DNA of 64,000 nt. It comes from Gemmatimonadota bacterium (GTDB lineage: Bacteria > Gemmatimonadota > Gemmatimonadetes > Gemmatimonadales > GWC2-71-9). The number at the start of each line of letters is the position of its first letter. Position 1 is the stretch's first letter. The notes under the pieces are model-generated. The model was not told where the DNA came from, made no database searches, and was given only the letters and a program-made list of their open reading frames with translations. Below are positions 2,781-63,542 of this stretch, one piece after another. Made by a program: the position numbers and the translations under genes. The DNA lies in contig JBDHJR010000007.1 in assembly GCA_039586815.1 (NCBI GenBank), positions 1,844-65,843 of the forward strand, given 5' to 3'.

Positions 2781-2785
2781 TGTGC

Positions 2786-2992: not shown

Positions 2993-3179
2993 GGCTCGTC
3001 CTCCTCGCCGATCAGGCTGTGAGGACGAGTGTGGGGCTGAGCGCGCCCCCAGGTGTGATCGTTCCGTTGCCCCGACGCGCCGATGCTTGCACGGCGGAGC
3101 TCCTCGCCGGGGTGAAGCGCAAACGGGGCGACGGATCGAATCCGTCGCCCCGCAACAGAGGACCGCGCTGCGAGAAGCG

Positions 3180-9910: not shown

Positions 9911-10028
9911 AGCCTTGGAACGTACCCGAGCCCCGGGCAGCCGGTCAATCCGCCGATTGTGACGCAAATCGCTTGCGGCCCCCTCCGGGCCATCGTAGTT
10001 TGACCCTCCCTACCTCCGGTGCGATGCC

Positions 10029-43797: not shown

Positions 43798-43955
43798 ATA
43801 CCCCTCCCCCAACGGACCGTGTGCGACTATAGTAGGGTCCGGCCGGGAACGCGTCCAGCCCCGAACGCTCCTATCCCCTTTGATTTCTCTTAACGTTTCT
43901 TCATCCAACGGTAGGCCGTCCACTCGGGGTGCGTCGGCCTGCCGGGTTGCCGCCT

Positions 43956-46814: not shown

Positions 46815-46958
46815 CCTCGTCACCACTCGTCCCCGCCTAGATTCGATCGAATCGTGCCCCCGCCAAGATACACTTGAATGCCGCACCGAGAGCCGGCCCG
46901 GTAGATCCTAAAGAATTCCTCACCCGAATTTGTAAGTCGGTGCCAGGTCACCCCTTAG

Positions 46959-47016: not shown

Positions 47017-49008
47017 TCAGTTCTTCGTCCGCACCGTTCCGCCTGATTCTCGCGTCGGCGTGTTCTGCGCTGCGGCGGCGTTCTCATCAACGCCTTGAGC
47101 CGAGGCCGCGGGAGCCAACTCCTCGTCATACCACTGCGCGTGGTGGTGCATCACGAAATGCTCCGGCAAGCGGCCCGTTAGCCATGCCCAGTTCATGGGG
47201 TATGCGTCGGGGTGCACGATCACGAAGAAGAGGTGCCACACCAGGATTGCAAGCGTGGCGAGCCAGGCCTCGTAGTAGTGCACCGTCTGCGACGCCGGCA
47301 CGATCCACCACGGCAGGATCTTCACCGCCGCGACCGGGAACCAGAGCACGAATCCGGTCACCACCATGACCACCGTGCCCCACACCAGCGCCCAATACTC
47401 CGCCTTCTGCGTGTAGTCGTAGCGCCCGAAGCGCGGGTGCTTCCTCGTACGCCACGTGTAGTACCGCAGGTACTGCGTCGCGTCGGTGGCGTCGCGCCAC
47501 TGCGGCAGCATCGCCTTGAACTCTTCCTTGCCCCGCCGCGTCATCATGACGTACAGCACGTGGCTCACCGCCACCGCGATGAGCACGACCGCGGCGATGC
47601 GGTGCAGGTTGGAGCGCACCGGCTCGTTCATGCCGATGGCGGTGAGCCATTGGACCCACCACGCGTCGGGGAACCGCAGCGCAAACCCCGTGACCACCAG
47701 CAGGATGAAGGCCACGGCGTTGACCATGTGTTGCGCCACCTGAGTACGATCGAGCCGCGTGATGTAGCCCACCCGCCGTTCCTCCCGGCGGCGCTCGATC
47801 AGGTAGTAGTTGAACACCACGGCGTTGTGCAGCGCCATGATCCCGATCGTCGCCGCGATGATCACGTAGTAGATGAGGCGGATCACGTTGTTGATCGGGT
47901 TGGCCGCCATGGAGGCCGTGATGTGGGTGTAGCTGGTTGCGAACTCCGTGTCGGCATCCGGATGGCACTGTCCGCAGGTGGCCGTCAGGTTGGCCGGGTG
48001 GATCGTGGAGGCCGAGTCGGACGCCGGCAGCACTGCATGGGTGGTGTGGCAGCTCACGCAGGTGGCGGCGCGCTCATAGTCGCGGGCCGTCGCCCAACCG
48101 TGGTAGCTGTCCTCGTAGGTGCCAATGACGCCACCCTGCATGCCATACTTGGCGATGATCTCCGGGTCGCCGTGGCACTCGCCGCACGTCTCGGTCGCGA
48201 GCCGGGCGTCGTAGGTCCGGGCGTGGGGGTCGTCGTGGGACAGGATCAAGTGCTCCCCGTGACAGTCCGTGCACGTGGGGCTGTCGCCCAACCCCGCCCG
48301 CAGCGCCCGCCCGTGAATCGAGGCATCGTAGAGCCGCTCAATTTCGTCGTGGCATTGGCCGCACGTGGAGGCGACGTTCAGGTGGTTGATCTTGGACTCG
48401 GGGTCCAGCGTCCCCCGCAGATCGTGCACGCCGTGGCAGTCGGTGCAGCGGGCGGCATCTCCGTCACCGTTGCGGCCGTGCACTGACTGGGCGTACGACC
48501 CGTAGATCTGGGGCAGGCGGACGGCCTCTTCGGTACGCAGGCCCGCCTCGCCGTGACAGGCGGCGCACATTATTGGGACGTTCTCGTGGTGAGTACGCGC
48601 CTCCGGATCCGAGCTGCGCCGGATGTCGTGCGCCCCATGACAGGAGGCGCAGGTCGGAGCTGCGGCAACCCCGCGCGCCAACGCGTAGCCGTGCAGGCTC
48701 TCGCTGAACTCCTGTTCCACGCCGCCGTGACACCCTCCGCAGCTCGGTGGCGGGGCGTCGGCAGGATGGGGGAACCCCGTGTAGCCCTGGTGACAGAACA
48801 CGCACTGCAAGCCAAGCGCCCCGTGCACGGAGGATGTGTACTCCTCCTCCGTGACCACCATCTGCGTCGGGTCCTCCAGCCCGGAGAACATGGCCACGTC
48901 GCCGTGGCACATGAGGCAGAGTTGGTTGTCCTGGGCCGCGGCGGGCTGTGCCGCTATGAATACGCTGGCGATCGCCAGCGAGAAGATCGTCAAGGGACTC
49001 GCGCGCAT
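47017..49008 (-). CDS. CbcL-like fusion: 11-heme cytochrome c domain + C-terminal diheme b-type membrane domain
   Basis: ATG at 49008 (MRASPLTIFSLAIASVFIAAQPAAAQ). 11 CxxCH motifs: CLMCH, CVFCH, CGGCH, CASCH, CAACH, CTDCH, CGQCH, CTDCH, CGECH, CVSCH, CGQCH. The TM domain has His residues at …VAQHMVNAVAFILLVVTG…, …LHRIAAVVLIAVAVSHVLY…, …TVHYYEAWLATLAILVWHLFFVIVHPD…. Its N-terminal 60 aa are clearly paralogous to those of 43956-46814. Confidence 0.85.
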   Translation of the reverse strand: MRASPLTIFSLAIASVFIAAQPAAAQDNQLCLMCHGDVAMFSGLEDPTQMVVTEEEYTSSVHGALGLQCVFCHQGYTGFPHPADAPPPSCGGCHGGVEQEFSESLHGYALARGVAAAPTCASCHGAHDIRRSSDPEARTHHENVPIMCAACHGEAGLRTEEAVRLPQIYGSYAQSVHGRNGDGDAARCTDCHGVHDLRGTLDPESKINHLNVASTCGQCHDEIERLYDASIHGRALRAGLGDSPTCTDCHGEHLILSHDDPHARTYDARLATETCGECHGDPEIIAKYGMQGGVIGTYEDSYHGWATARDYERAATCVSCHTTHAVLPASDSASTIHPANLTATCGQCHPDADTEFATSYTHITASMAANPINNVIRLIYYVIIAATIGIMALHNAVVFNYYLIERRREERRVGYITRLDRTQVAQHMVNAVAFILLVVTGFALRFPDAWWVQWLTAIGMNEPVRSNLHRIAAVVLIAVAVSHVLYVMMTRRGKEEFKAMLPQWRDATDATQYLRYYTWRTRKHPRFGRYDYTQKAEYWALVWGTVVMVVTGFVLWFPVAAVKILPWWIVPASQTVHYYEAWLATLAILVWHLFFVIVHPDAYPMNWAWLTGRLPEHFVMHHHAQWYDEELAPAASAQGVDENAAAAQNTPTRESGGTVRTKN

Positions 49009-49195
49009 CGTCTTCCTCCACTCCAACCCGGCCATCGTGTGGCAACCACCCATTCCCATCGCCGCTCGTCCATCTCACCGTTGGGATATATGGCCCGACG
49101 GCGCATGAAAGATAATGGGAACCACAGCTCCCGAAGGGACGAATTACCTGTTAGGAGGTCTTACCCGACCAGAGGAGTCGCGATTTCGTCGCGCC

Positions 49196-51184
49196 TTACC
49201 CACCACCCAATGGCGCGACGTCGTGACACAGGTGGCACTCCGCGGGAGCGTTGTGCTCCACCCGGTCGGCGTGGCAGATGGTGCACACCTGGCGGGACCA
49301 CTCGGTGATCCCCTGCGCCTTGTCGCCGTGGCATGTGCTGCACTGCGAGTGCCCGAAAGCGAGCGCGTGGCGGTCCTGCACCCCGCCCCGGTGGCACGAG
49401 AGGCAGTCCGCCTCGGGCTGATGGTGCATGTCGTGGCACGCCACGCAGTCTACGCCCCCACCGCTCATGTTGGGCGCGGCGTGGCACATGCTGCACGAGA
49501 GCCCGGCATCCCGGTGCGGGGCGTGCGGGAAGTCGCCGGTCTCGGTTGCCACCGGCGCCTCGGGTGCGCCACCGGGACCCGCGTGGCACTCGGCGCAGTT
49601 GCGGGATTCGATCTGCGCGTGGTGGCACCCGACGCAGTCGGAGGGCGAGCTGAGCAGCGTCTTACCGTGATCGTCGAGCGGCGAGTGGCAGCTCGCGCAG
49701 TCGAGGCCGGCATCCAGCACGTGTCGTTCATGATCGAACGCGGTGCCGCGGAACGAAAGCTCGCTGCGCTCCACCCCCAGGTGACACTGCAGGCAGACGT
49801 TCTCGCTCACCCGCGGCCCGAGGTCCACCTGTGGCACCGCGTACGGGAGGCTGCCCGCGCGCACGGCTTCTTCCACCAACTCCACGCTCGCCCGCAGCAG
49901 CTCGTCGGCGTAGGCGATGTTGTGCGCCCCCTTACCGAGCTCGACGAACTCCACGTTCTCCCGGGCGAGCTCCAGCAGCGAATCCACCTGTGTTCGGGTG
50001 CGCACCTGGGCCGACCCGGCAGCCCGCACTGCCCCCTCTACCACACGCGACGCGAGCCGCACCTTGCGGTCCATCTCCTGCTGCCATGAGGGCAGGATGT
50101 TGACGTAGCGGATACCGTGACACGACAGGCACGACGCCTCGCCGGCGAACCGTACCGACTCGTGCGCGCTCACGCCGCGGAGCAGCTCGTGGCACCCGGT
50201 GCAGGAGACCCGGGCGAGGAACATGGAGCTCGGAGTGTCGTCGGATCCGTGACCGCCGATCCCCGCATACAGTTGTTGCTGCGCCTCGTGCACCCGTCGG
50301 TGGCAGGCCTCGCAGTCGAGTTGGGCTGTCTCGTTTAGTGAGAAGAGCTGATGCACGATCTCTGTGTGGCACTGGGTGCATTCCACGTTGTGCTCGGCGA
50401 TGTGCACCCGATGAACGAGCGTCGTGTTCTCGAACTCCTCGACGCGCTCCGGCCGATTGTGGCACGTCCAGCAGCGTTGCTCGTCGGCGTCCCCCGTGCC
50501 GCGCCGCACCTCATCATGACACGATACGCAAGAGACGAGGTCCTCCACATACTGCTCGTGGTCCACGACGAACCCCGCCGGCGAAACGACGCGTGGTGGT
50601 GCCGTGTGGCACGCTACGCAGCCCGCCACCGGCTCGTCTGCCTCGGCGGCCTTGAAGTGACACAGATTGCACGTCGTCTGCGTGACCGCGAGGTGCTGTC
50701 CCTGTACTATCTGGGAGTGGCACGATGTACAGCGTAGCTGCTTGCCGCGGCGCAGCTCGCCCAGGTGCTGGGTGTGGTCGAACCGCACCCCTCGGTAGTT
50801 CACCACGCCTTCGACCTTGCGCAGCGAGTGGCACCCCGAACGCAAGCAGGCGGCGTCCTCGATCTCGGCCCACGGCTTGGTGCCATAGGCCCCCGTCACG
50901 TACCGCGCTACCTGGTTGGCCGCCTGGAACTTGCCCATCGCTTCGGCCTTCACCCCTGGCGCGTAGTGGCACTTGATGCAGGGCACGTCGTTGTGGGAGG
51001 AGGTCGCCCAGGAATCGTAGTAGGGCTGCATGATGTGGCAGTTGGTGCAGAAGCCCGGCTGGGCGCTGTACTCGATGAACCCGACCGCCCCCACCGCCGC
51101 CAGGATCACCGCGAGCACGCCGATCTGAATGCCGATCTTCAGCGGCTTCGAGAGACGCTGGAGCTGCTCCGAGGCGCGTCGCAT
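49196..51184 (-). CDS. NapC/NirT(CymA/ImcH)-headed membrane-anchored multiheme cytochrome, 21 CxxCH + one CX4CH
   Basis: N-terminal TM helix (IGIQIGVLAVILAAVGAVGFI) is followed directly by CTNCHIMQPYYDSWATSSHNDVPCIKCH, the NapC/NirT quinol-dehydrogenase head. 19 further CxxCH motifs run along 660 aa. An additional CLRSGCH is present. Confidence 0.85.
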   Translation of the reverse strand: MRRASEQLQRLSKPLKIGIQIGVLAVILAAVGAVGFIEYSAQPGFCTNCHIMQPYYDSWATSSHNDVPCIKCHYAPGVKAEAMGKFQAANQVARYVTGAYGTKPWAEIEDAACLRSGCHSLRKVEGVVNYRGVRFDHTQHLGELRRGKQLRCTSCHSQIVQGQHLAVTQTTCNLCHFKAAEADEPVAGCVACHTAPPRVVSPAGFVVDHEQYVEDLVSCVSCHDEVRRGTGDADEQRCWTCHNRPERVEEFENTTLVHRVHIAEHNVECTQCHTEIVHQLFSLNETAQLDCEACHRRVHEAQQQLYAGIGGHGSDDTPSSMFLARVSCTGCHELLRGVSAHESVRFAGEASCLSCHGIRYVNILPSWQQEMDRKVRLASRVVEGAVRAAGSAQVRTRTQVDSLLELARENVEFVELGKGAHNIAYADELLRASVELVEEAVRAGSLPYAVPQVDLGPRVSENVCLQCHLGVERSELSFRGTAFDHERHVLDAGLDCASCHSPLDDHGKTLLSSPSDCVGCHHAQIESRNCAECHAGPGGAPEAPVATETGDFPHAPHRDAGLSCSMCHAAPNMSGGGVDCVACHDMHHQPEADCLSCHRGGVQDRHALAFGHSQCSTCHGDKAQGITEWSRQVCTICHADRVEHNAPAECHLCHDVAPLGGG

Positions 51185-51185
51185 C

Positions 51186-52421
51186 CTACGGCTTGGCTTC
51201 CCGCAACTTGAACCAGGCGAGCGCGATCACCGATAGCGCCAGGAACCAGACCGGAACGAGCAGCAGCTTGTGCTCCCACTGTTCCTCCGCGTGCGCCTCC
51301 GCCGTGGCCCGGATGATCCCCGTGTTCGAACGCACACGCAGCCCAAGATCTCTCAGCTGTTCGAGGTCCAGACTGTGCTGCACCAGCGCGACCTGGTTGT
51401 ATTCTGAGACGGCACTCTGGTAGCGGAAGCGCTCATCAGCTACCTCGTGACCCATCGCCACCATCTCATCGATGGCATCGGCCGCCTGGTGGAGCTCCTC
51501 CGTGGCTCGCAGCACTTGTTCCTGGATCTCCGCGCCCATGAGTCCCGGACCACTCTCGGCATCGTGACACCTTTGACACAGCGCGGCGATCGCGTCGAAC
51601 GGCGTGCGCTCGGTACCATGGTTGCTGTGGCATCCTAAGCAGCCCTGGAGCTCCCCGCTGCGTGCCGGCCCACCGTGCGGCCCCCGGTAGAACGCTCGCC
51701 CCAGAAGCTCGTGGCACTGACTGCACACGTCGGCGATCTGGTTGACCGCGGGCGGCAACGCAGCGTGCGAGCCGTGACACCCGATGCAGGTCGGCGCCGC
51801 AAAATTGCGTTGCTCGAACACGGCGACTCCATGGGCTCCGGTGCGGTAGCGCTCGAACTGATCGGTGGGCTCCCTGTACCGGGCCATGAGCTGCGCGTCC
51901 TCATGGCAGTTCCCGCACGTGGCCGGGATGTTCGTGGGGTGGACCTCGCTGCGCGCATCCTCCGGCGGCAGGATCAGGTGCGCGTTGTGGCAGTCGGTGC
52001 ACGTGGGCGCGGCGGCGTCGCCCTGTTCGAGAAGCAGTTGGCCGTGGCGACTGGTGCGGAACTCGGCGAGCTGGTCGGCCGCCAGACCGTACTGCCGCAT
52101 CTGGTTGGGGTCGGCGTGGCAGGCACTGCACAGTTGGATGGTCCCCAGCTTGCTGGGCGTTCCAACGAATCGCCCCTGATGCGCTGCCGGGGCCTCGTAC
52201 ACCGCCGTGTTGCCTCCATGACAGTCGTGGCACTTGATACCCTGCTCCGAGTGCACTCCGAGCGTGAACGATCGCCGTTTGTCGGCGTGGCAGACGATGC
52301 AGCCGTACACGGAGTCGTCCTGTGCAGCGAGTCTCTGAGCCGGGGGCACGGGCGCCGCGGTGGCGCCATCCGGCACCGCCCCCAAGAGGAGCACCAACCC
52401 CAGGACCGAGAGGGTCCTCAT
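51186..52421 (-). CDS. Nonaheme c-type cytochrome with C-terminal membrane anchor (paralog of 57711-58994)
   Basis: The ATG at 52421 shares one nt with the cytochrome b stop. Signal MRTLSVLGLVLLLGAVPDGATA. Nine CxxCH motifs (CIVCH, CHDCH, CSACH, CTDCH, CGNCH, CIGCH, CSQCH, CLGCH, CQRCH). A helical region and a C-terminal TM helix LLLVPVWFLALSVIALAWF follow. The 196-codon 5' extension in the track overlaps cytochrome b and is rejected. Confidence 0.8.
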   Translation of the reverse strand: MRTLSVLGLVLLLGAVPDGATAAPVPPAQRLAAQDDSVYGCIVCHADKRRSFTLGVHSEQGIKCHDCHGGNTAVYEAPAAHQGRFVGTPSKLGTIQLCSACHADPNQMRQYGLAADQLAEFRTSRHGQLLLEQGDAAAPTCTDCHNAHLILPPEDARSEVHPTNIPATCGNCHEDAQLMARYREPTDQFERYRTGAHGVAVFEQRNFAAPTCIGCHGSHAALPPAVNQIADVCSQCHELLGRAFYRGPHGGPARSGELQGCLGCHSNHGTERTPFDAIAALCQRCHDAESGPGLMGAEIQEQVLRATEELHQAADAIDEMVAMGHEVADERFRYQSAVSEYNQVALVQHSLDLEQLRDLGLRVRSNTGIIRATAEAHAEEQWEHKLLLVPVWFLALSVIALAWFKLREAKP

Positions 52422-53779
52422 CACGGCCTCCCCACTCCATCCCCGACAGCGCTGTCTGCGGGAGATCCCGGCTCTACCGGCGTCGGCCCGACTCGTTCGA
52501 GCGGTGTGCTGGATCTCGCCGGCACCACCCGCTCCTGCCGCTCCACCTGCCCAATTCCCTCGGAGGGAGGCAACGAACCGATGCCCCGCCCCAGGGCCCA
52601 CAACATGACGAAGCCGCCGAAGAAGACCGCCCCGAGAGCGGCCACAACCGGGCGCTTGCGGATGTGTCGCTCCGGGCGTCGATCGAACAGGGGGAGGAGG
52701 AACAGGCTGAAACCCACCAGCGTAAAGGCCGTGAACCCCCACATCCCGAGATAGCGAAGCAACGCCAGCGACACGTCTACGGGCACCCAGGTGGAGACCA
52801 ATCGATCTGGTACCGTGAGGGGATCCGCCGGATTGCCGAACGGCCGCGGGAACAGCACGGCCAGGGTCACTACCAGCGCCAGGACCAGCACCGTCACGCT
52901 GAGTGACCTCAACAGGTGGTTGGGGAAGAAGGGCGTGCCCTGCTGCTCGGCCTCCTCCATCGCCTGCTTCAGAACTTCCTGTGTCGTTCCCACAGCACTC
53001 AGGCGCCACGGCGCCTTCTCTTCGTTTACTTCTACCGGCGGCGCGATGCCGCGGCGGCGCACGAGCGTGAAGTGGTACGAGAGCAGCGCCAGAGAGATCC
53101 AGGGAAGCACGATCACGTGTAGCGAGAAGAAACGGCTGAGCGTCGCGCCCGACACGATTACGTCACCCATGAGGGCATCAGCAATCACCCCACCGAAGAA
53201 CGGGAAGCCGGAGATCGCAACCAACACCTCGGTCACCGTCCAGTAGGCCCACTGATCCCAGGGCAGCAGGTAGCCGCTGGCGCCGAACGCCAGGACCACT
53301 CCCAGCAGGAGCAGCCCGACGGTCCAGTTGGTCTCCCGGGGGGGCTTATACGCCGCCTCGAACAGGACCCGCGCCATGTGCGCCAGAACGGCCAGAACGA
53401 TGAGGCTTGCGGACCAGACGTGGACGTGGTAGATCAGCCAGCCGAACGACACGTTCGACACGATGTGTTGCACGCTCGGGTTGGCCTCTTGCACCGACGG
53501 GCGATAATACAGCGCCAGCAACACGCCCGTGACCACCAGCATCATGAAGAGCACGTACGTGATGCCACCGAACATCTGGCGCCAGCCCACGTGGGGGTCG
53601 AGCCGGTACTTCAGAGCCTTGCGGAGTGCATCATCGATCCGCAGCCTGCGGTCGATCGGTCCGTAGATCAGCCCGAGGAACCGGGCGCCTCCCAGCAGGC
53701 CCGCATCTGCACTCGCCTTGAGGTCGTCCCACGTCTGGGAGAACCATAGGCTCGTGGCGTGCCACATCCGACGAATCAT
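52421..53779 (-). CDS. Cytochrome b (fused b6 + subunit-IV type), divergent: Qo PEWY motif absent
   Basis: …FGGITYVLFMMLVVTGVLLALYYRPS…FGWLIYHVHVWSASLIVLAVLAHMARV… has the heme His pair at H-x13-H. …TLSRFFSLHVIVLPWISLALLSYHF… has H-x14-H. In the position where the paralog 56113-57210 reads KPEWYF, this protein reads VSTWVP. Confidence 0.85.
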   Translation of the reverse strand: MIRRMWHATSLWFSQTWDDLKASADAGLLGGARFLGLIYGPIDRRLRIDDALRKALKYRLDPHVGWRQMFGGITYVLFMMLVVTGVLLALYYRPSVQEANPSVQHIVSNVSFGWLIYHVHVWSASLIVLAVLAHMARVLFEAAYKPPRETNWTVGLLLLGVVLAFGASGYLLPWDQWAYWTVTEVLVAISGFPFFGGVIADALMGDVIVSGATLSRFFSLHVIVLPWISLALLSYHFTLVRRRGIAPPVEVNEEKAPWRLSAVGTTQEVLKQAMEEAEQQGTPFFPNHLLRSLSVTVLVLALVVTLAVLFPRPFGNPADPLTVPDRLVSTWVPVDVSLALLRYLGMWGFTAFTLVGFSLFLLPLFDRRPERHIRKRPVVAALGAVFFGGFVMLWALGRGIGSLPPSEGIGQVERQERVVPARSSTPLERVGPTPVEPGSPADSAVGDGVGRP

Positions 53780-53780
53780 G

Positions 53781-54236
53781 CTATGACTCCGTCACGTAAA
53801 CTGTGCCGTCCCGTACGAACACCGAGTAGCGGGCGAGCGGTGCGGTGGAGAGGCCGGTCACGACGTAGCCGTGCAGGTCGTAGATCACGTAGGAGCAGGG
53901 CGAGAAGACGCGCGACGACTCGTCATCCCACTGGAGGATGCAACCGTCGCTGGGGGAAACGCCCTGCAAGGCAAAGTATGTGTCTTCCTCGACCCTAACG
54001 ACGAGGATCGCGCGCTCGCCCCACCGCACCAGCCGGCTTGCGCCGACCGGGAAGTCGGCCTGGCGCACCACGCGAAACGCAGGCTGCACCTGGGGGATCT
54101 CGAGGCGCTCGCCCGGTAGGACGTAGAGCCCGACACTCAGCCCGATGGTCGCGAGGATCAGGACAACGACCGCGCCGAGCAGGAGCTCGTTGAAACCGAG
54201 CCCCGAAGTCTTCTCCTCCGCACCGTCAGCGCTCAG
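53781..54236 (-). CDS. Rieske-fold protein lacking all four 2Fe-2S ligands (pseudo-Rieske subunit), probable N-terminal TM anchor
   Basis: Alignment with the canonical Rieske protein at 57212-57694:
[32 protein letters not shown]
GVSPSDGCILQWDDESSRVFSPCSYVIYDLHG
Box spacing is identical, but Cys/His/Cys/His are all Ser, while the two disulfide Cys are kept. The track ORF starts at GTG 54089. However, the frame stays open to 54329 and encodes a TM helix (LLLGAVVVLILATIGLSVGLYVL) with no ATG/GTG/TTG. I propose a CTG start at 54236, preceded by GGGAGGGGA. The 5' end is uncertain. Confidence 0.55.
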   Translation of the reverse strand: MSADGAEEKTSGLGFNELLLGAVVVLILATIGLSVGLYVLPGERLEIPQVQPAFRVVRQADFPVGASRLVRWGERAILVVRVEEDTYFALQGVSPSDGCILQWDDESSRVFSPCSYVIYDLHGYVVTGLSTAPLARYSVFVRDGTVYVTES

Positions 54237-54315
54237 CGCTCCCCTCCCTGGATATGAGCCTGGTGGCTCGTAGTCAAACCGTGCTAAGATTGGCAGACCC
54301 CTTCCGATTGTGCAA

Positions 54316-54375: not shown

Positions 54376-55944
54376 CTACTTCCGCACCACGCCCTCCGGC
54401 AGCACCCCCTGTAGCGGCGCCGGCAGCGGGTTGGTCACGCCGTAGTGCGCAGCTCCCTCGTTGATTGAGGCGATCATCAGGGCCCGGAGGAACTTGGGAT
54501 TGTGCACGCCGTTGCCGCTGGTGGGGTGCGAGCTGATGTGGACGACAGTGGCCGGGTTGACCCGAATGTAGAAATCCGCGAACCACGGCGCGTCATCGGT
54601 CGCCGCGAGCTGCGCATTCCACAGGACACCCTCCGCCGTGGTGAACAGCACGTCGCTCACGTCGAGGATGCTGCCCCCCTCCTGCGCGACGATGCTAACC
54701 AGGAGCCCGGTATCGCCCGCGTCCAGTGTGTCGTTGGCGTTGGCATCGTCCCACACCATCTCGAGGTAGCCGGTCAGCTCGGCCTTGAAGTTCAGGTACG
54801 CGGTCCGGGCGAAATCCTCGGAGATGTGGCACGGGAGACACGCGGTAAACCGCTGCGAGTCCACCGTGCAGTTGTGGCCCGGTACCGGGATGCCCTGAGC
54901 GTTGAGGCACGGGATGGCCTCGAACAGGTGTCCCACGCTCTCGAACACAAATTCACCGGTCGCCTGGTCGTTCACCGTGAACCGCTCCACGTGACACGTG
55001 GCACACAGTCGCTCGTTGAGGTCTTCGTCACCGTGCGTCGGTACCAAGCCGTCCTGCCAGTCGAGGCTGTCCGGCCACCACCCGATGTTCTGCGCCAGCA
55101 CCAGCGGTCCCTGCGCCGCATGCGGGCCGTGCGTAGTGGCCCCGGGTATCGTGCGGTTGTTATGGCACTTGACGCAGAGGTTGCGGTTCGAGCCGATGTC
55201 GATCGGCGATCGCAGCTGCGAGTCGTTGTCACGACTGTGCGGATCGTGACACGTGGCGCACACGATGTCGAACGCGCCTGTGCTGTCCTTCTCGACGTAA
55301 TTGGCGTTCTCGCCGAACTGGGCCAGCATGGCGATGCGGCCGTTGTGGCACTCCCCGCAGTCGCTGCGACGGGAGGCGAAGCTCGTGACGTTGCCGTGTG
55401 CCGACTGGGACCACTGTTCCACGAACGGAGTGTGGACACCCGTGTGGCAGTCGCCGCAGCCGTCACCCAGACCCACGCCGGCCTGGATCGAGGCGAGCGG
55501 CTGCGTGTTCCCGGGATTCACCATATGGTCGGCGCCGGGACCGTGGCAGTTCTCGCACTGCACGTCGTAGTAGGTGGCACGGCCCACGGTGTCGCTGGAG
55601 TCGAGCGCGTTGATCCCCGCCGGGGCCGTCAGCGCGTTACCGTTCTCGCTCACCGCGTGGCAGCCCTCACAGTAATCCGCGACGTGGCCCGAGTTCTGCA
55701 AAGATGCCCACGCGTGCGAGTGGCCCGTGCTTTCCCAGTCCTTGGTCTGATCGGCGTGGCAGTTGCCGCAGGTGGGCCAGCCGGCCTCAGCGTCGGCGTA
55801 GCCGAGGAACCCGTTCACGGAATCGGGCGGCGGGTTGAAGGGATCGCGCGTTTCCGGTGTGACCGTGTCGTCGGTACACGCGGCCATGGCGAGGAACCCC
55901 AGCGCGAACACAGCCAGGAAGGCTCTTCTTACGGAATGTGCCAT
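54376..55944 (-). CDS. Nonaheme c-type cytochrome lipoprotein
   Basis: MAHSVRRAFLAVFALGFLAMAAC|TDD contains a lipobox. Nine CxxCH motifs (CGNCH, CEGCH, CENCH, CGDCH, CGECH, CATCH, CVKCH, CATCH, CLPCH), then a ~170-aa heme-free C-terminal domain. I prefer the ATG at 55944 over the track start at 55962. Confidence 0.8.
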   Translation of the reverse strand: MAHSVRRAFLAVFALGFLAMAACTDDTVTPETRDPFNPPPDSVNGFLGYADAEAGWPTCGNCHADQTKDWESTGHSHAWASLQNSGHVADYCEGCHAVSENGNALTAPAGINALDSSDTVGRATYYDVQCENCHGPGADHMVNPGNTQPLASIQAGVGLGDGCGDCHTGVHTPFVEQWSQSAHGNVTSFASRRSDCGECHNGRIAMLAQFGENANYVEKDSTGAFDIVCATCHDPHSRDNDSQLRSPIDIGSNRNLCVKCHNNRTIPGATTHGPHAAQGPLVLAQNIGWWPDSLDWQDGLVPTHGDEDLNERLCATCHVERFTVNDQATGEFVFESVGHLFEAIPCLNAQGIPVPGHNCTVDSQRFTACLPCHISEDFARTAYLNFKAELTGYLEMVWDDANANDTLDAGDTGLLVSIVAQEGGSILDVSDVLFTTAEGVLWNAQLAATDDAPWFADFYIRVNPATVVHISSHPTSGNGVHNPKFLRALMIASINEGAAHYGVTNPLPAPLQGVLPEGVVRK

Positions 55945-56112
55945 CACGGACACCTCCCCCACATATCGTTGGCACCGACACCCCGTGCAGTTCGCGGGAC
56001 GCTGCTACTAATTAATGCGAGCAAACTAGTCGCGCAATAGAGGGCTTCCGACTAAAGAAACATTAATAGTCCGTTATACATTATCGACTTAGCCGCCCGC
56101 ACCGGCGCACCA
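55945..56112 (-). promoter_or_regulatory. AT-rich 168-nt gap inside the supercluster (candidate internal promoter/regulatory site)
   Basis: …CTACTAATTAATGCGAGCAAACTAGTCGCGCAATAGAGGGCTTCCGACTAAAGAAACATTAATAGTCCGTTATACATTATCGACTTA… (~56005-56092) is far more AT-rich than the surroundings. It separates bc module 1 from bc module 2. Confidence 0.35.
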
Positions 56113-57210
56113 TCAACTCGCAGGATCGGCCGTGTATCCGAGATAGGTCAACACGATGATGTAGACGATCATGGCAATCCCGATCCACGTATACAACCGG
56201 CTCGGCTCGCCTCGTGCGGAGCGTCGGTCGAGCAGCGGGATGAGCAGCACGAAGAGACCGGCCAGGCCGAACCCGATGATGCCTACGACCTCTCCCTCGA
56301 TTCCCAAGATGTGGGCCGGTAGGTACTTCAACGTCTGGAACGTGAACATGAAGTACCACTCCGGCTTGATGCCCGCCGGCGCAGGAGCGAACGGGTCCGC
56401 CTTGTCACCGAGATGCGCCGGGAAGTAGGCCGCCAGTGCCGCCAGCGCCGCCAGCGCCACGAGCCACCCGACCAGGTCCCGCAGCAGGAAATTGGGGACG
56501 AACGGCATTGCACCCTTGCTGCCTCCGCGCCGTTCGACGTCGAGCGGGACGCTCATCCCCTGCTTCTGCACGAGGAACAGATGAAGCCCTAGAATGGCGA
56601 CGGTGAGCAGCGGAAAGACAGCCACGTGAAACGCGTAGAACCGCGTGAGCGTGGCCCCTGTCACGTCGTCTCCCCCGCGCGCCACCCGCAGCAGGAACTC
56701 CCCGACGACCGGCACCACCCCGAGGATCTCGGTCCCCACTCGCGTCGCGAAGTATGCCAACTCGTTCCAGGGCAGCAGATACCCGGTAAACCCGAAGGCC
56801 AACGCTAGGCCCATGAGCGCCACGCCGGAGAACCAAGTTATCTCCCTCGGCCGGCGGTAGGCCTTCAAGAGCAGCACGCTGAACAGGTGAATGAACAGAG
56901 TGAAGATCATCAGGTTCGCCGCCCACGAATGGATCGAGCGGACCAACCATCCGAACTCCACTTCGGCCATCAGGAACTGCACCGACTCGTAGGCCTCCTC
57001 GGCGCTCGGTCGGTAGTAGAACAGCAACAGGATGCCCGTGGACACCTGGACGATGAACAGGAAGAGGGTCATCCCACCCAGGTAGTACCAGATCGTGTGC
57101 CGGTGGACCGGCACCTCCTTCTTCTTAGCGAGGGCTTTCAGGCCGGCCAGCCCGACACGCGCCTCGAGCCACGCCTCGCACTCCACCAACCACTTTCGCA
57201 ACCGCGCCAT
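56113..57210 (-). CDS. Cytochrome b (fused b6 + subunit-IV type), canonical
   Basis: …[28 protein letters not shown]…[25 protein letters not shown]… (H-x13-H), …[26 protein letters not shown]… (H-x14-H), and the Qo motif …[17 protein letters not shown]…. Confidence 0.9.
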
Positions 57211-57211
57211 A

Positions 57212-57694
57212 TCAGCTTTCCCTGCTCACGAAGATCTGATCGTCGCGCACGTTCACGACGTACGCCTCGAGCGGCGTCGGGGGTGGGCCCTCGATTTGCT
57301 GGCCATTGAGGTCGAAGTGCCCGTTATGGCACGCGCACCAGATATGGCCGATGTCCCCTCGATACTGCACGATGCAGCCCAGGTGCGTGCAGGCGGCCGA
57401 GAAAGCTCGAAATTCACCGGCACTGGTGCGCACCAGGATCCCCGGTCGGCTGCCAAACCTGAAGATCTGGGCCGAGTTGGGCGGGACGTCAGCGGGTGTG
57501 AACGGTAGCACTACCGAGGCCGCCGCGGACTCGCCCGCCGCGGGCGGCACGAGGTAGCGTCCCGTAGGGTAGAGTATCGCCAGTACCAGGCCGCCGACGC
57601 TGGTGCTGAGCAGCCACGTCGTCAACGTCCTGCTCAGCACCCAATCGATGAATCTCCTGCGAGAAGTCCCGCGCTCGGGGCCGTCTGCAGCCAT
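57212..57694 (-). CDS. Rieske 2Fe-2S protein (canonical ligands, Tat leader)
   Basis: Tat motif SRRRFIDW plus a TM helix. Cluster boxes CTHLGC and CACHNGHF. It lies 1 nt upstream of cytochrome b. Confidence 0.9.
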
Positions 57695-57710
57695 TCAGAG
57701 GTCCTCGGGT

Positions 57711-58994
57711 TCAGGTGGTGGGTTGTTCCCTGCTATCGAGCTCGCGGATCTTGAGCAGGAGCCCGACAATCAACATCCCGATGATGACCACCGAGATGGC
57801 CAATCCCATGCGTCGGAACTGGAGCCGCCCCGTTGCCTGTACCCCAAGCTCGTGGGCCGTCGCCGCGATCTCCAACCCCGACTCGACCTCGTCCTTCACG
57901 GCAATCACGTTGAACGAGTGCACGGCCGCTCGGGCGCTGATCAACGCGGTGCTCGCGCCGGTGAGCTCGAATTGCGCCTGGCTCACCTCCATGCCGGCGT
58001 CCTCTGCCCGCTCCAGAAGCGAGTCCGCCTCATGATGCGCCGTCGAGAGGGAGTCGATCAGGCTGCGCATCGCGCTGGCTACCTGGCCACCCGGGTCTCC
58101 GGAGGTGTGGCACCTGGCGCACACCGCTCCCTCCTCGAGCCCGAGTAGATCGTCACCGGGCCGCGTGATGTCGTGGTTGTTGTGGCACGTTGCACATCCC
58201 GGCACACCCAGCATCGCAAATGTCCGCGCGTGCCTGCTCTGCGCGAAGAGATCCGCCATCACGCTGTGGCACTGCCCGCACACGTTGCCGACCCAGGAGA
58301 TTCCGGGCGGGGCAGCGCCATGATTGCCGTGACAGTCGTTGCAGGTGGGTGCCGACAGATCGCCCCCTTCCGACATCGCCTCCCAATGGACGCTCCGCTG
58401 ATATCGCTCCAGTTGGTCGACGGGAATGCGATACGGCTCCATGTACTCGGCATCGGCATGACAGCTCGAGCAGGTCGCAGGTACGTTCAGCGGATTGACA
58501 CTCGAGAGCGGGTCCGTCGGCGGTCTGATGGAGTGCGCTGGGTGGCAGCTCACGCACGTCGCCGTCTTTGAATCGCCGAGCTCTATCAGCCGCCGACCGT
58601 GAACCGAGCTGGCAAATTCCGCCACCTGGTCAACACGAATCGACGGGTTATAGCGCCTCATGAACTCCGCGTTCGAGTGGCAGCGACCACAGAACTCGGC
58701 AACCTGCTCGCGCCCGGGCTTGGCGAGGAATCCCTTGGCCGGGTCCATGGAGGTAATCCCAGGATCCGTCGCATCGCCGCCGTGGCAGGCGACACAGCCA
58801 AATCCCCTCGCCGCATGAATGTCACTGGGAAACGCCCTCGCTGGATTGGAGAGCCGTTCGTCGCCCAGCACCAGGTGGCACGCTCGGCAGTTGTCCTCCG
58901 CGGCCTCCTGCTCTTGCGCAAGCACATCTGCCTGCGACGCGAACGTGGCAAGCAGACAGAGCGAGGCGAGCGTGCGGAGAGCCGAGCGCGACAT
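57711..58994 (-). CDS. Nonaheme c-type cytochrome with C-terminal membrane anchor (paralog of 51186-52421)
   Basis: Signal MSRSALRTLASLCLLATFASQADVLAQ. Nine CxxCH motifs (CRACH, CVACH, CGRCH, CVSCH, CSSCH, CNDCH, CGQCH, CATCH, CARCH). A helical region and the TM helix GLAISVVIIGMLIVGLLL follow. Confidence 0.85.
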   Translation of the reverse strand: MSRSALRTLASLCLLATFASQADVLAQEQEAAEDNCRACHLVLGDERLSNPARAFPSDIHAARGFGCVACHGGDATDPGITSMDPAKGFLAKPGREQVAEFCGRCHSNAEFMRRYNPSIRVDQVAEFASSVHGRRLIELGDSKTATCVSCHPAHSIRPPTDPLSSVNPLNVPATCSSCHADAEYMEPYRIPVDQLERYQRSVHWEAMSEGGDLSAPTCNDCHGNHGAAPPGISWVGNVCGQCHSVMADLFAQSRHARTFAMLGVPGCATCHNNHDITRPGDDLLGLEEGAVCARCHTSGDPGGQVASAMRSLIDSLSTAHHEADSLLERAEDAGMEVSQAQFELTGASTALISARAAVHSFNVIAVKDEVESGLEIAATAHELGVQATGRLQFRRMGLAISVVIIGMLIVGLLLKIRELDSREQPTT

Positions 58995-60250
58995 CAGTTC
59001 TCACGCCCCAGCGTCTGGAGATACGAAGACAGGTCCGCCATCTCGACGGTGCTGAACGTGGGCCAGGCCTCGCCTTCTATCATGGCTGCGTGGTTCCACA
59101 GTGCCGCCATGACCGCGGCGGGCGAGTCGAGCCCTTGAACCTGAGCCAGGTCGCCGGCCGCCGTGCCTCCTGTTCCTCCCACTGAATGACACTCCAGACA
59201 TCCCTTATCTCGCACGCGGCGCGCTCCTCGGGTCGCATTGCCTGCCTCGCCAAAGTACCGAACCGACGACAGATAGGCGACGAGATCCGCCATGTCTCCC
59301 GCGCTGAGCCGCGGGACCGAGATCCCACTCGTCTGGATCGCCTCGAGCATGGAGGGAGCCTTATTCCACATGGCCGCGGCGAAGTCGATCAGGCTCTCGT
59401 GCCGTCCCATTCTACCCAGGTCCGGTGCCAACATGCCAGTCTCACCATCGTCGCCGTGGCATTGGCTGCAGCCACGGTCCACGAAACGCTGGCGGCCCTC
59501 CACCGGACGCCCCGGGAGCACGTACAGCGGTGCAGTCGGCATCGCCGGAGACCACGACTCCAGGAAGGCGATGACATCCGTCAGCTCGGAGCCAGTGAAG
59601 GAGGGACGTCTGATTCCTTGAGCCCGCATCGCTTCGGTCATTGCCGGGCCGTGGTTCCACATCGCCGTGGCGATCTGGATCGGCGATCCGTACTGGCTCA
59701 GGAAGTCGAGGTCCGGCCCGGCGACACCACCAACTCCGGCGACCTGGTGGCAGAGCACGCAGTTCTTCTCGGTGAAGAGCTGCCGACCGCGCTCGATCTC
59801 GCCGGGAGGATCGAAGTAGTCGAGCCATACCAGAAAGGCGACCAGGTCGCCGGCTTCCCACGGATCCAGGTGTGGCCGCGCGATCCCGAGCTCATCCATA
59901 CGCTGCACCATCTGCGGGAGGTGATTCCACATCGCGGCGGCAAAGCCGTAGTAGGACTGAGGCTCGGAGGACCGCCCCAAGTCGGGGCCCACCGCGCCGC
60001 CAACTCCGTCGATGGCATGGCACCCGGCGCACCCCATGGCTCCGAAGAGCCGTGCACCTGCCGGCACGCTTTGGCCAGTTCCTTCCGGTATCTGCGAAAG
60101 CAGCGGCTGGAGCGGCCAGCCGAGCACCACGAGAGCGCCACACAGCGCCCGCACCGTGGCTCCCATGCTGTGTCTGATCATTGGCCACCGTCCTTCATGC
60201 TGAAGCCCAACTCGCACTGGCAGACCAGCACTCTGCAGCAGAGCCGTCAT
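58994..60250 (-). CDS. Cytochrome c with four tandem class-I monoheme domains
   Basis: Four ~100-aa repeats of G..LF…GC..CH…G.GG..GPDL……..A.MWNH...M…….P.…E..D..A(F/Y)L. The heme motifs are CAGCH, CVLCH, CSQCH and CLECH. The start is uncertain: 60250 directly abuts the upstream stop, and an alternative ATG lies at 60181. Confidence 0.8.
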   Translation of the reverse strand: MTALLQSAGLPVRVGLQHEGRWPMIRHSMGATVRALCGALVVLGWPLQPLLSQIPEGTGQSVPAGARLFGAMGCAGCHAIDGVGGAVGPDLGRSSEPQSYYGFAAAMWNHLPQMVQRMDELGIARPHLDPWEAGDLVAFLVWLDYFDPPGEIERGRQLFTEKNCVLCHQVAGVGGVAGPDLDFLSQYGSPIQIATAMWNHGPAMTEAMRAQGIRRPSFTGSELTDVIAFLESWSPAMPTAPLYVLPGRPVEGRQRFVDRGCSQCHGDDGETGMLAPDLGRMGRHESLIDFAAAMWNKAPSMLEAIQTSGISVPRLSAGDMADLVAYLSSVRYFGEAGNATRGARRVRDKGCLECHSVGGTGGTAAGDLAQVQGLDSPAAVMAALWNHAAMIEGEAWPTFSTVEMADLSSYLQTLGREN

Positions 60251-61480
60251 TCAGTCACGCCCTCCCGGCTCCTGTGCTTCGGCGAGATTCTTGAGAAAGA
60301 CCGACAGATCCCGCATTTCGTCGCCTTCGAACAGCGGCCACTCCGCATGTTGGAGCTGCGACTGGTCGTACATGGCCGGGGCATGGTCCCACATGGCCGT
60401 GGCGAGTCCGAGCGGCGTCCGGACCGCCTGCGACTCGGATAGGTCGGGTCCGGCCGCCGACTCGCTGCCGCTGGTGTGGCAGGTCGAGCATCCTTTGCTG
60501 CCGAACAGCGCCTCGCCCCGCCGCACGTCACCCCCCATCTCATTGAACCGCAGGTAGTACAGGAACGCGATCACGTCGGCCATTTCGGTTCCTTGGAACC
60601 GCGGAAACGAAATACCCCGACCGCGCATGACCTGGGCCATCTGCGACGCGTGGTTCCACAGCGTCCCCGCGATCTCGGAAACCCGCAGCCGTTGCGTCGC
60701 CGTGCGCAGGTCCGGGCCGAATGCCGTCCCGCTACCATCCGGTCCGTGGCAGGCGACACATCCTTTCGTCGTGAACAGCCGTCGACCCGTGTTGGGGTCT
60801 GGCGGCGTGAGGAACACCAGGTCGCGTCCCCGCAGCGAAGAACGCTCTCGGATGTACGCCTGGATGTCCGCCATCTCTCGCCCGAGGAAGGTGGGCATCG
60901 GGACCCGCTCCACCGATAGCTGCGCTCGCATACTGGCCCAGTGGTTCCACATCCCCTGGGCAAGCACGATCGGTGCGACATAGCGAGCGTAGTCGTCGAG
61001 CGCAGGACCGCCATTCCCGCCTTCACCGCCCACGGCGTGACATGCTGCGCAGCGCTGTTCCCGGTACCACCGCTCGCCGAGCCCGGGGTCTCCCGGCTCG
61101 TCGAACAGCTTCACGTAATAGATGTAACTGATGATGTCAGCGAGCTCCGCCTCCGTGAAGGTGGTCCACTGGAATCCCCTCTCTCTCACGGTCTGTATCA
61201 TCCTCGGCGTGTGGTTCCAGAACACCCCCGCCAGTTGCTGCAGGCTCCGACCGGCTCCGACCAGCGCGAAGTCGGGACCCAGGTTGCCGCCATTCCCCCA
61301 GATGGCGTGGCACCGCACACAGCCCCGCTCGACGAACAGGCGCCGACCGGCAATTGGGTCGCCCGGAATCGACTCGGTTGACTGTGCATGGGTGCTCGGC
61401 GCGCCGGTCATGGTGAGCCAGGCGAGGGCTCCCACGACCCGCAACCACGGATGTTTCACACAACGAAGAGGAGGCATCAT
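60251..61480 (-). CDS. Cytochrome c with four tandem class-I monoheme domains (paralog of 58994-60250)
   Basis: Signal …VVGALAWLTMTGAPSTHAQ. Heme motifs CVRCH, CAACH, CVACH, CSTCH, each followed by GPDL…(M/F)WNH…M and …E(L/M)ADI(I/Q)(S/A)Y(I/L)…. Confidence 0.8.
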   Translation of the reverse strand: MMPPLRCVKHPWLRVVGALAWLTMTGAPSTHAQSTESIPGDPIAGRRLFVERGCVRCHAIWGNGGNLGPDFALVGAGRSLQQLAGVFWNHTPRMIQTVRERGFQWTTFTEAELADIISYIYYVKLFDEPGDPGLGERWYREQRCAACHAVGGEGGNGGPALDDYARYVAPIVLAQGMWNHWASMRAQLSVERVPMPTFLGREMADIQAYIRERSSLRGRDLVFLTPPDPNTGRRLFTTKGCVACHGPDGSGTAFGPDLRTATQRLRVSEIAGTLWNHASQMAQVMRGRGISFPRFQGTEMADVIAFLYYLRFNEMGGDVRRGEALFGSKGCSTCHTSGSESAAGPDLSESQAVRTPLGLATAMWDHAPAMYDQSQLQHAEWPLFEGDEMRDLSVFLKNLAEAQEPGGRD

Positions 61481-62844: not shown

Positions 62845-63528
62845 TTACCCCCTCGCTCGCAGGTAGTAGACCTTGGGCTGCGTTCCCAGATCCTCCATCA
62901 ACCGCATCACACGTGGATCCTCCTTGAGCTCGGCCACCCGATGGGTCGGATCGTCGAGGTCGCCGAAGACGATGGCACCGGTGGGACAGATCTCGGCGCA
63001 CGCCGGCTGATAGTCGTCCTCCCGCAGCTCGCGCCCTTCGGCGCGGGCGTCCTCCCGTGCGTGCTGCAGCCGGTGGTGGCAGAAGGTGCACTTCTCGATG
63101 ACGCCCTTGGACCGCACCGACACGTCCGGATTGAGATGCTGGCGCTCGGATTCGGCCCACTCGGGTCCGTACCAGTTGAAGTACTTGACCAGGTAGGGGC
63201 ACGCGTTGGCACAGTAGCGGCATCCGATGCAGCGCGGATAGATCTGACCGACGACCCCCTCGTCGCTGATGTACGTCGCCTCAACCGGACACACCTTGAT
63301 GCAGGGGGGGTTGTCACAATGCATGCAGGGACGAGGGTAGAAGTGCATGGCCGTGTGGGGGAACTCTCCCTCCACATGCGCCGTCACCTTCATCCAGGCG
63401 ATGGTGCGTCCCATCTCCGCCTGCTCGGGCGAGACCGTCGGGATGTTATTCTCGCTCTTACACGCCACCTCGCACGCGGCACAGCCCGTGCAACGGTCGA
63501 GGTCGATCACCATGCCCCATCGCGTCAT
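62845..63528 (-). CDS. 4Fe-4S ferredoxin-type subunit (PsrB/NrfC/ActB2-like)
   Basis: The ATG at 63528 gives MTRWGMVIDLDRCTGCAACEVACKSEN…, …CMHCDNPPCIKVCP…, …RCIGCRYCANACPY…, …KCTFCHHRL…ACAEICPTGAIVFGD. These are four Cys clusters in the arrangement of CISM-family beta subunits. I rejected the 5' extension in the track because it overlaps the upstream gene's 3' end. Confidence 0.9.
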   Translation of the reverse strand: MTRWGMVIDLDRCTGCAACEVACKSENNIPTVSPEQAEMGRTIAWMKVTAHVEGEFPHTAMHFYPRPCMHCDNPPCIKVCPVEATYISDEGVVGQIYPRCIGCRYCANACPYLVKYFNWYGPEWAESERQHLNPDVSVRSKGVIEKCTFCHHRLQHAREDARAEGRELREDDYQPACAEICPTGAIVFGDLDDPTHRVAELKEDPRVMRLMEDLGTQPKVYYLRARG

Positions 63529-63542
63529 CGTTCCCGCACCCC

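Follow-up and report, generated by a model that had tools for sequence, protein, structure and literature searches.

A Rieske-fold protein without 2Fe-2S ligands is probably a retained subunit of a bc-derived complex in Gemmatimonadota

Complexes of the Rieske/cytochrome b type are defined by a 2Fe-2S cluster and by the bifurcated oxidation of quinol, the reaction on which the Q cycle is based. What is the function of a Rieske protein that has lost every ligand of the cluster and is still encoded next to cytochrome b? This question is raised by a gene on the minus strand of a 64,000-nucleotide stretch of DNA from a Gemmatimonadota bacterium (contig JBDHJR010000007.1 of the assembly GCA_039586815.1, positions 1,844 to 65,843; hereafter referred to as the window). 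The gene product, designated here as the cluster-less Rieske protein, is encoded by the first gene of a four-gene operon together with cytochrome b and two multihaem c-type cytochromes. Based on the loss of ligands, the sequence of the partner cytochrome b, and the conservation of the operon as described below, it is probable that the protein has been retained, without its cluster, as a subunit of a bc-derived complex in which electrons are no longer bifurcated. The coordinates of the features under discussion are summarized in Table 1.

The cluster-less Rieske protein was compared by BLASTP with the canonical Rieske protein encoded about 3 kb upstream. The two proteins were aligned over the whole length with 29% identity (E 6e-16), pairing SPSDGC with CTHLGC and SPCS with CACH, and the spacer between the two boxes is 12 residues in both proteins. 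The ligand motifs CxH and CxxH, with two Cys and two His in total, were not found in the window protein. The initial annotation of this DNA had claimed that all four ligands are replaced by Ser with identical box spacing and retention of the disulfide Cys, and that the gene is located 1 nt upstream of a cytochrome b gene and 3 kb from a canonical Rieske gene; all these claims agree with the alignment and with the positions determined here (start of cytochrome b at 53779).

The loss of ligands is shared throughout the family. A search of 5.8 billion proteins yielded 111 relatives with 48-95% identity, and those with a taxonomic name all belong to Gemmatimonadota. These relatives were pooled with 68 genome loci and with the loci found via another gene of the operon, giving a total of 204 distinct core sequences. 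The position of Cys1 is occupied by S in 151, A in 49, G in three, and D in one of these sequences, and that of Cys3 by S in all 204; at the position of His2, S, T, G, R, N, A, D, and K were observed. The His1 position is hypervariable with 15 different residues, including His in only three of the 204 sequences, in which the other three ligands are still absent. Apart from that of His1, no ligand position was ever occupied by Cys or His, and intermediates with partial ligand sets were not found among the 204 sequences. The two disulfide Cys residues are conserved, C99 in 203 of the 204 sequences and C114 in all. With no intact ligand set in the family, a Rieske cluster is not expected, as had been predicted from the window sequence. 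In the other genomes, where a search for the same pattern had been proposed, Ser is strictly conserved only at the Cys3 position.

In a profile search against 1.84 billion representative proteins, about 14 cluster-less representatives were detected, of which the named cluster members are all Gemmatimonadota, and below these the scores fall sharply to ordinary Rieske proteins of the CxH...CxCH type. One locus, L061 (contig CAXMRU010000218.1), is filed as a metagenome-assembled genome (MAG) of Akkermansiaceae and carries the full Gemmatimonadota-type module with 50-64% identity to the window proteins; this may be a binning error.

Among 70 aligned members of the family, D97, C99, L101, W103, S112, P113, and C114 are invariant. 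The loops that once held the cluster are the sites of lowest per-site entropy within the protein (0.87 and 1.01 bits, as compared with 1.1-1.8 bits elsewhere), indicating that the tip of the domain retains some specific role.

The window protein is predicted to keep the Rieske beta-sandwich fold with its two loops. In the AlphaFold2 model built on the family alignment, with a mean predicted local distance difference test score (pLDDT) of 89.6, a helix spanning residues 15-39 is joined to a beta-domain through a linker of low definition. By Foldseek, the iron-sulfur protein (ISP) of Chlorobaculum tepidum (8hn2) was ranked first, with a root mean square deviation of 1.3 Å over 96 columns and a TM-score of 0.81 normalised to the target, and Kuenenia kuste4569 was ranked second. 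The family profile, when compared with the PDB, also matched ISPs of the bc/b6f type, the best one being the ISP head of 8hn2 (E 2e-14). The best Pfam match was Rieske_2 (PF13806), with 27.4 bits against a cut-off of 27, and the score for Rieske (PF00355) was 14.8 bits, below the gathering cut-off of 20.3. Within the 70 members, Rieske_2 was matched by 60 and PF00355 by 10 (E<0.01). The structural comparison with Rieske domains, proposed in the initial annotation as a check, was in accord with its assignment of a Rieske fold. The profile and fold rankings indicate descent from a genuine Rieske subunit of the bc type, and not from NirD, the small subunit of nitrite reductase.

The beta-domain is preceded by a transmembrane anchor at the N-terminus. 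Rieske proteins are exported by the twin-arginine translocation (Tat) system since the cluster is inserted in the cytoplasm (PMC5449189). Ahead of the anchor of the cluster-less Rieske protein, however, sGLGFNELLL takes the place of the twin-arginine motif, of which the counterpart is SRRRFIDW in the canonical paralogue of the window and KRRDFLNW in the nearest canonical relative. The RRx-hydrophobic-hydrophobic motif was found in 44 of 47 canonical Rieske open reading frames (ORFs) of related loci, but in only two of 102 full-length members of the cluster-less family. The Tat motif may be dispensable because the protein carries no cofactor.

The presence of the anchor depends on the start codon. 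The translation of 53781-54299 (minus strand) contains ...GVSPSDGCILQWDDESSRVFSPCSYVIYDLHG..., and the open frame terminates in ...GVSPSDGCILQWDDESSRVFSPCSYVIYDLHGYVVTGLSTAPLARYSVFVRDGTVYVTES*. At position 54236, the codon is CTG and not ATG, GTG, or TTG. The first in-frame canonical start, used for the mechanical ORF, is GTG at 54089, from which the membrane helix would be lost. The CTG is located 6 nt downstream of the GGAGG core within the Shine-Dalgarno-like sequence GGGAGGGG, and five related genomes (L001, L002, L003, L005, and L006; near 9990-10010) share the CTG column together with a G-rich, Shine-Dalgarno-like stretch ahead of it. The GTG start of L003, L005, and L006 is replaced by GCG or GTA in the window, L001, and L002. 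More distant relatives have an ATG or GTG start within a few codons of the CTG position in the family N-terminal alignment, and in the BLASTP alignment the residues read from CTG 54236 onward are matched one by one to those following the initial Met of the canonical paralogue. Because GTG is replaced by GCG or GTA and CTG is probably used, the closest relatives were called by gene callers at 127-128 amino acids with the anchor cut off (for instance, P0001, P0003, P0008, and P0012). Judged from this conservation, the gene probably starts at the non-canonical CTG 54236, so that the coordinates 53781-54236 given in the initial annotation are probably right but imply an unusual start codon.

Between the stop codon TAG of the cluster-less Rieske gene and the next ATG there is a distance of 1 nt; this ATG opens the gene for a 452-residue cytochrome b, the stop codon of which overlaps by 1 nt with the ATG of the gene for an anchored nine-haem cytochrome c; the fourth gene encodes a cytochrome c with 21-22 haems (junctions 1, -1, and 1 nt). 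The nine-haem cytochrome is a paralogue of the nine-haem subunit of the canonical operon (57711-58994), with 32% identity (E 3e-66). The first module of the 21-22-haem cytochrome is of the NrfH/NapC type, in which CxxCHxM (C46, C49, H50, and M52) is invariant. The core of four genes is kept in every sufficiently long locus of the 68 that were retrieved via the Rieske gene, and in all of the 65 loci retrieved via the large cytochrome, the cluster-less Rieske gene is located directly upstream of cytochrome b. The ratio of nonsynonymous to synonymous substitution rates (dN/dS) against six orthologues was 0.12-0.24, similar to that of the neighbouring genes. Taken together with the constant presence upstream of cytochrome b, this ratio indicates that the cluster-less Rieske protein is a retained subunit and not a relic.

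In cytochrome b, the four His residues that ligate the bL and bH haems from helices B and D (H120, H134, H221, and H236) are invariant in all 66 orthologues. The Qo motif, in contrast, is degenerate. The PxWY pattern was not found in the window protein, and the family motif is [ST][ST]W[VI], in which Trp is kept and both Pro and Tyr are replaced; the ef region after the motif is about eight residues shorter than in the canonical paralogue. The Cys of CxGG for haem cn of the b6f/green clade was not found in the window cytochrome b, the position reading MFGG. The canonical complex of the window carries CTHLGC...CACH and the SRRRF Tat motif in the Rieske protein and PEWY in cytochrome b. Throughout the Gemmatimonadota loci, the pairing is strict: the cluster-less Rieske protein is associated with [ST][ST]W[VI], and the canonical Rieske protein with PEWY.

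Table 1. Location of the cluster-less Rieske gene, its operon, and neighbouring features within the window
Feature	Position	Strand	Basis or remark
Cluster-less Rieske-fold subunit gene, 151 amino acids from CTG 54236 (probable start)	53781-54236	minus	Stop TAG 53781-53783
Shine-Dalgarno-like sequence GGGAGGGG	54241-54248	minus	Ends 4 nt upstream of the CTG start; from sequence
N-terminal transmembrane anchor, residues 18-40	54117-54185	minus	Hydropathy, AlphaFold2 helix, family N-terminal alignment
Former ligand box I, SPSDGC, residues 94-99	53940-53957	minus	Cys1 to Ser, His1 to Ser; Asp97 and disulfide Cys99 invariant
Former ligand box II, SPCS, residues 112-115	53892-53903	minus	Cys3 to Ser, disulfide Cys114 kept, His2 to Ser
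Partner cytochrome b, 452 amino acids, unsplit	52421-53779	minus	Pfam Cytochrome_B 157 bits; best PDB match cytochrome b6, E 7e-50
Degenerate Qo motif STWV, residues 329-332	52784-52795	minus	Aligned at the PEWY position of the canonical cytochrome b family
Nine-haem cytochrome c with C-terminal anchor, 411 amino acids	51186-52421	minus	Nine CxxCH and a transmembrane segment near the C-terminus
21-22-haem cytochrome c with N-terminal anchor	49196-51184	minus	Pfam Cytochrom_NNT; NCBIfam NrfH 48.9 bits; 1-nt junction
Nine-haem cytochrome c, possibly accessory	54376-55962	minus	Precedes the operon in most related loci
Paralogous canonical complex	56113-58994	minus	Nine-haem c 57711-58994, Rieske 57212-57694, cytochrome b 56113-57210

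The origin of this state can be traced by comparison with sister modules. The scan with the large-cytochrome alignment gave as its best 80 loci only those of Gemmatimonadota, and the sister groups were retrieved by using the large-cytochrome protein of L069 as a probe. The nearest canonical Rieske protein in the profile search, P0125, belongs to the same module, with an anchored nine-haem cytochrome c and an NrfH-like 18-haem cytochrome c. Modules with a normal Rieske protein (L069 and L153-L206) were found in at least six phyla, including Bipolaricaulota, Fraserbacteria, Binatia, Acidobacteriota, Eisenbacteria, and others. The gene order is the same as in the window, but the Rieske protein of the sister modules is always of the CxH...CxCH type and keeps the Tat motif, and cytochrome b carries a carboxylate-free P[PA]WY; the large cytochrome is NrfH/NapC-like with 18-22 haems and 36-50% identity. 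No description of a four-gene Rieske/cytochrome b/nine-haem/NrfH-like module was found in the searchable literature. The presence of normal ligands in the module of other phyla indicates that the Gemmatimonadota state is derived, and the ligands, the Tat motif, and PxWY appear, from the sequences, to have disappeared together in one lineage. A recent duplication of the neighbouring canonical Rieske gene was ruled out as the source, because the nearest canonical relatives are those of the 'CPCH ... W-D' type from the sister modules and not of the 'CACHNG' type present in the window.

In many sister modules, the opposite half of the machinery has decayed. Of 34 cytochromes b from these modules, 23, most of them belonging to Acidobacteriota and Eisenbacteria, have Arg in place of the bH ligand on helix B, and in 12 of these 23 the helix-D ligand is also replaced by T, N, or G, whereas the adjacent Rieske protein retains all its ligands (L157, L159, L165, L166, L170-L186, L201, and L206; cytochrome b genes at about 2000-3700). 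This decay of bH with the Rieske cluster kept is the mirror image of the decay in Gemmatimonadota. The b haems are thus dispensable in this type of module, and their invariance in Gemmatimonadota implies that they have a function there. Some loci of Bipolaricaulia and Binatia carry two Rieske/cytochrome b pairs back to back (L153:589-3767 with PDWY and PAWY; L162:452-3716 with PEWY and PRWY).

As the best explanation overall, we favour with moderate confidence that the protein is a cofactor-less, membrane-anchored, structural subunit of Rieske descent within a bc-derived complex specific to Gemmatimonadota, from which the Q cycle is gone. The former Rieske subunit would be inserted by Sec/YidC without the Tat system, with its head in the periplasm, and its conserved tip would dock statically on cytochrome b or on a haem protein without shuttling electrons. 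The sequence that connects the anchor with the head, LPxExLxIPELQPA, shows conservation and no richness in glycine, for which reason the head is considered to be fixed and not mobile. The protein would then serve as a structural or adaptor subunit, and the bifurcating reaction at Qo as well as the Q cycle would be lost. The 'structural pseudo-subunit' of the initial annotation is upheld in that the subunit is retained under purifying selection and in 65 of 65 loci, but its structural nature is what we infer; likewise, the replacement of PEWY by STWV is strictly correlated with the cluster-less Rieske protein, but the loss of bifurcation at Qo claimed there is deduced from this correlation.

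How such a complex might work can be outlined as follows. The bL-bH pair would carry electrons across the membrane like a wire, connecting a quinone site on the N-side with a periplasmic chain of roughly 30 haems, and the large cytochrome may contribute, with its NrfH-type module, a second quinol site on the P-side. The whole would be a non-bifurcating quinone:multihaem-cytochrome oxidoreductase, with a 'gear' unlike that of the canonical Q-cycle complex of the genes 3 kb upstream, and would feed, or be fed by, the cytochromes of the extracellular-electron-transfer type that are encoded in the same gene island. Inward flow of electrons from periplasmic donors to quinone would generate proton motive force, and outward flow with oxidation of quinol on the N-side would be assisted by the membrane potential. 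The b-haem wire itself is proposed tentatively, at somewhat less than even chance. Still more speculative is the suggestion that the complex represents a new class of respiratory enzyme, in which the high-potential half of the Qo site has been dismantled to leave an electrogenic or potential-assisted conduit that operates without a Q cycle between a quinone site on the N-side and more than 30 periplasmic haems serving extracellular electron exchange, and in which the tip of the former Rieske protein gates or plugs the old quinol pocket or docks a haem domain; together with the bH-losing sister modules, the machine of the Q cycle would then have been dissected by evolution into its halves.

Several observations weigh against the explanation favoured here. 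The PPWY modules of the sister groups keep the cluster without the Qo carboxylate, and the change of motif alone is therefore no proof that quinol oxidation at Qo is lost. The invariant tip (D97, C99, S112, P113, C114, and W103) could reflect a new ligand or a catalytic role. The start codon CTG is non-canonical, and the translation of the anchor is deduced from conservation only. The complex as a whole is known from sequence, and all the related loci are from MAGs, with no isolate among the 148 loci of Gemmatimonadota.

Alternatively, the Qo site might still oxidize quinol and bifurcate its electrons, with a c haem of the anchored nine-haem cytochrome taking the place of the cluster as the first acceptor and the former Rieske head positioning this haem over the pocket. 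In favour of this are the conservation of the tip loops, which is the highest within the protein, and the retained Trp of the Qo motif, as well as the sister modules, which already operate with carboxylate-free P[PA]WY, and the paralogy of the nine-haem subunit to its counterpart in the canonical operon, where it is the equivalent of cytochrome c1. The replacement of Qo Pro and Tyr and the shortening of the ef region are, however, difficult to reconcile with a working Qo site; no haem-contact site is apparent in the sequence, and we know of no precedent for haem-based bifurcation in the Rieske/cytochrome b family. We regard this scheme as unlikely.

Even less likely, in our estimation, is another cofactor or metal at the old cluster site, such as a mononuclear metal on Cys99, Cys114, Asp97, and Ser112 acting as a redox or sensing centre. 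The invariance of D97, C99, S112, P113, and C114 among the 70 aligned members and the low entropy of the same loops are what such a site would predict. Only two thiolates are left, however, and these are aligned with the disulfide pair of canonical Rieske proteins; the positions of His1 and His2 are variable, and the loss of the Tat motif argues against loading of a cofactor in the cytoplasm.

NirD proteins also show a Rieske-like fold, in many species without a cluster, but they are soluble and cytoplasmic and their partner is NirB. The window protein might be taken for the small subunit, of the NirD type, of an assimilatory nitrite reductase unrelated to the adjacent cytochrome b, to judge from its match to Rieske_2, a NirD-like family, and from the name 'nitrite reductase small subunit' given to some relatives by the NCBI and JGI pipelines. 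The names in the source annotations vary, including 'ubiquinol-cytochrome c reductase iron-sulfur subunit', 'Rieske (2Fe-2S) protein', 'Rieske Fe-S protein', and hypothetical protein. Against this identity, the window protein has a membrane anchor at the N-terminus, and in 133 loci its gene shows translational coupling to that of cytochrome b. Its score against NCBIfam NirD is 19.4 bits, far below the cut-off of 74.65, and the single NirD-type structure (3c0d) appeared only at rank 32 of the Foldseek list headed by bc/b6f ISPs. No Pfam match corresponding to NirB was found among the gene products scanned (33437-63855). The identity with NirD was ruled out on the basis of anchor, synteny, and profile and fold ranking, and is given hardly any weight. 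A decaying pseudogene, or an artefact of assembly or sequencing at the ligand codons, is equally improbable and was ruled out: a canonical start codon is indeed absent at the expected position of the window, but the pattern is common to 204 distinct and concordant sequences, the frame is intact under the low dN/dS, and the Shine-Dalgarno-like stretch with CTG is conserved, with GTG or ATG starts at the same place in relatives.

The cofactor-less subunit proposed here differs in several respects from known systems. With Rieske ISPs of bc/b6f complexes (PetC/QcrA; 8hn2 and Kuenenia kuste4569, 9rk4), the window protein shares the fold, the single-helix anchor, the loop lengths, the disulfide Cys residues, and the site upstream of cytochrome b, but it lacks the Cys/His ligands and the twin-arginine motif and would accordingly be without a 2Fe-2S cluster, its match to PF00355 is subthreshold, and its linker is not glycine-rich. 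The sister modules with a normal Rieske protein have the same gene order, but keep the ligands, the Tat motif, and P[PA]WY, and many of them are without bH ligands. NirD has in common a cluster-less beta fold of the Rieske type serving as a partner subunit, but the window protein is anchored, faces the periplasm as predicted, descends from bc-type ISPs, and has cytochrome b as its partner.

The extKLMNOPQS cluster of Geobacter sulfurreducens (GSU2930-2937) encodes the Rieske protein ExtO, the cytochrome b ExtP, ExtQ, and 10- and 12-haem cytochromes (PMC2825233, PMC5877670). Both this cluster and the window operon have a Rieske/cytochrome b core amid large multihaem cytochromes in a setting of extracellular electron transfer. 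ExtP/ExtQ are, however, split, ExtO is annotated as an Fe-S protein, and the gene order and the cytochromes differ; the window cytochrome b scored 191 bits with the ExtP model (NF040969), below the equivalog cut-off of 290, and is not an equivalog. In the anammox complexes Kuste4569-4574 and Kustd1480-1485, a multihaem cytochrome c replaces cytochrome c1 and non-classical energetics have been proposed, and the Rieske clusters have measured potentials (PMC12954380). These complexes and that of the window are both non-standard with multihaem subunits, but the anammox Rieske protein binds 2Fe-2S, whereas that of the window is predicted to be without a cluster. The quinol oxidases CbcL and CbcBA of Geobacter, consisting of a dihaem cytochrome b and multihaem cytochrome c, are potential-dependent (bioRxiv 10.1101/2021.04.15.440034). 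The principle proposed for the window complex, two b haems across the membrane that lead into a chain of periplasmic c haems, with no Q cycle and with tuning to a redox window, may be shared with these enzymes, although the Geobacter b subunits belong to the HydC/FdnI (b561) family and not to bc1/b6f, and have no Rieske-fold subunit.

Reviews and phylogenies of Rieske/cytochrome b complexes cover variants of the Qo motif, loss of bH ligands, and Rieske-free clusters (PMC3509893, PMC4122944, PMC5600118), but a retained cluster-less Rieske protein is not mentioned therein. The full-text searchable literature, with some subscription reviews outside its scope, gave no cluster-less Rieske protein in a cytochrome b operon, in accord with the initial annotation. 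A cluster-less Rieske protein that is lineage-wide and under selection is thus apparently undescribed.

A lineage of phylum level, living in sediments, soils, and groundwater, hence retains a Rieske subunit under purifying selection after shedding the cluster, the export route, and the Qo motif, and keeps both b haems. Such a system shows what the cytochrome b scaffold might be capable of without bifurcation, and offers a natural 'cluster knock-out' in which the structural contribution of the Rieske subunit can be studied. In combination with the sister modules that lose bH, the modular evolution of the Q cycle becomes directly testable. Metabolic reconstructions of Gemmatimonadota in which cluster-less Rieske proteins are counted as a second bc complex are probably wrong.

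The operon is located within an island of genes for redox proteins, all on the minus strand. The genes at 47017-49059 and 43956-46886 encode multihaem cytochromes c (11 and 19 CxxCH, respectively) fused to a C-terminal domain of the b561/HydC-FdnI type, an architecture similar to that of CbcL. An MtrC/MtrF-like multihaem cytochrome is preceded by an ORF of 602 amino acids without Pfam or NCBIfam match (41324-42388 and 42274-44082), which could encode the partner in the outer membrane of a porin-cytochrome conduit. The canonical operon directly follows two tandem genes for paralogous cytochromes that contain four cytochrome c domains of class I each (58994-60250 and 60251-61480), and ahead of these lie the genes for a membrane protein resembling NrfD and a 4Fe-4S protein resembling NrfC (61497-62843; 62845-63855). 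The presence of CbcL-like fusions, MtrC-like and tetra-domain cytochromes, and NrfCD-like genes suggests extracellular or periplasmic electron exchange.

In the course of the searches, Rieske proteins with a partial loss of ligands were found outside the cluster-less family. In two loci (L070:62-712 and L071:7001-7639), a Rieske gene is located directly upstream of a split cytochrome b, and His1 is replaced by Tyr (P0136, P0154, and P0180) or Phe (P0222 and P0244) in proteins of this kind. Other variants in a single ligand also exist, such as CPRTGC...CPCD (P0131), and the degeneration of ligands in Rieske proteins linked to cytochrome b may be more frequent than assumed. Rieske proteins of NC10 with an anchor of the PetC type and the replacement of Cys3 by Ser (CTHLGC...SPCH) were found in two loci (L072:5612-6103 and L073:1145-1636), where the gene adjoins those for a CsoR-type metal repressor and Fur/FeoAB, and not cytochrome b.

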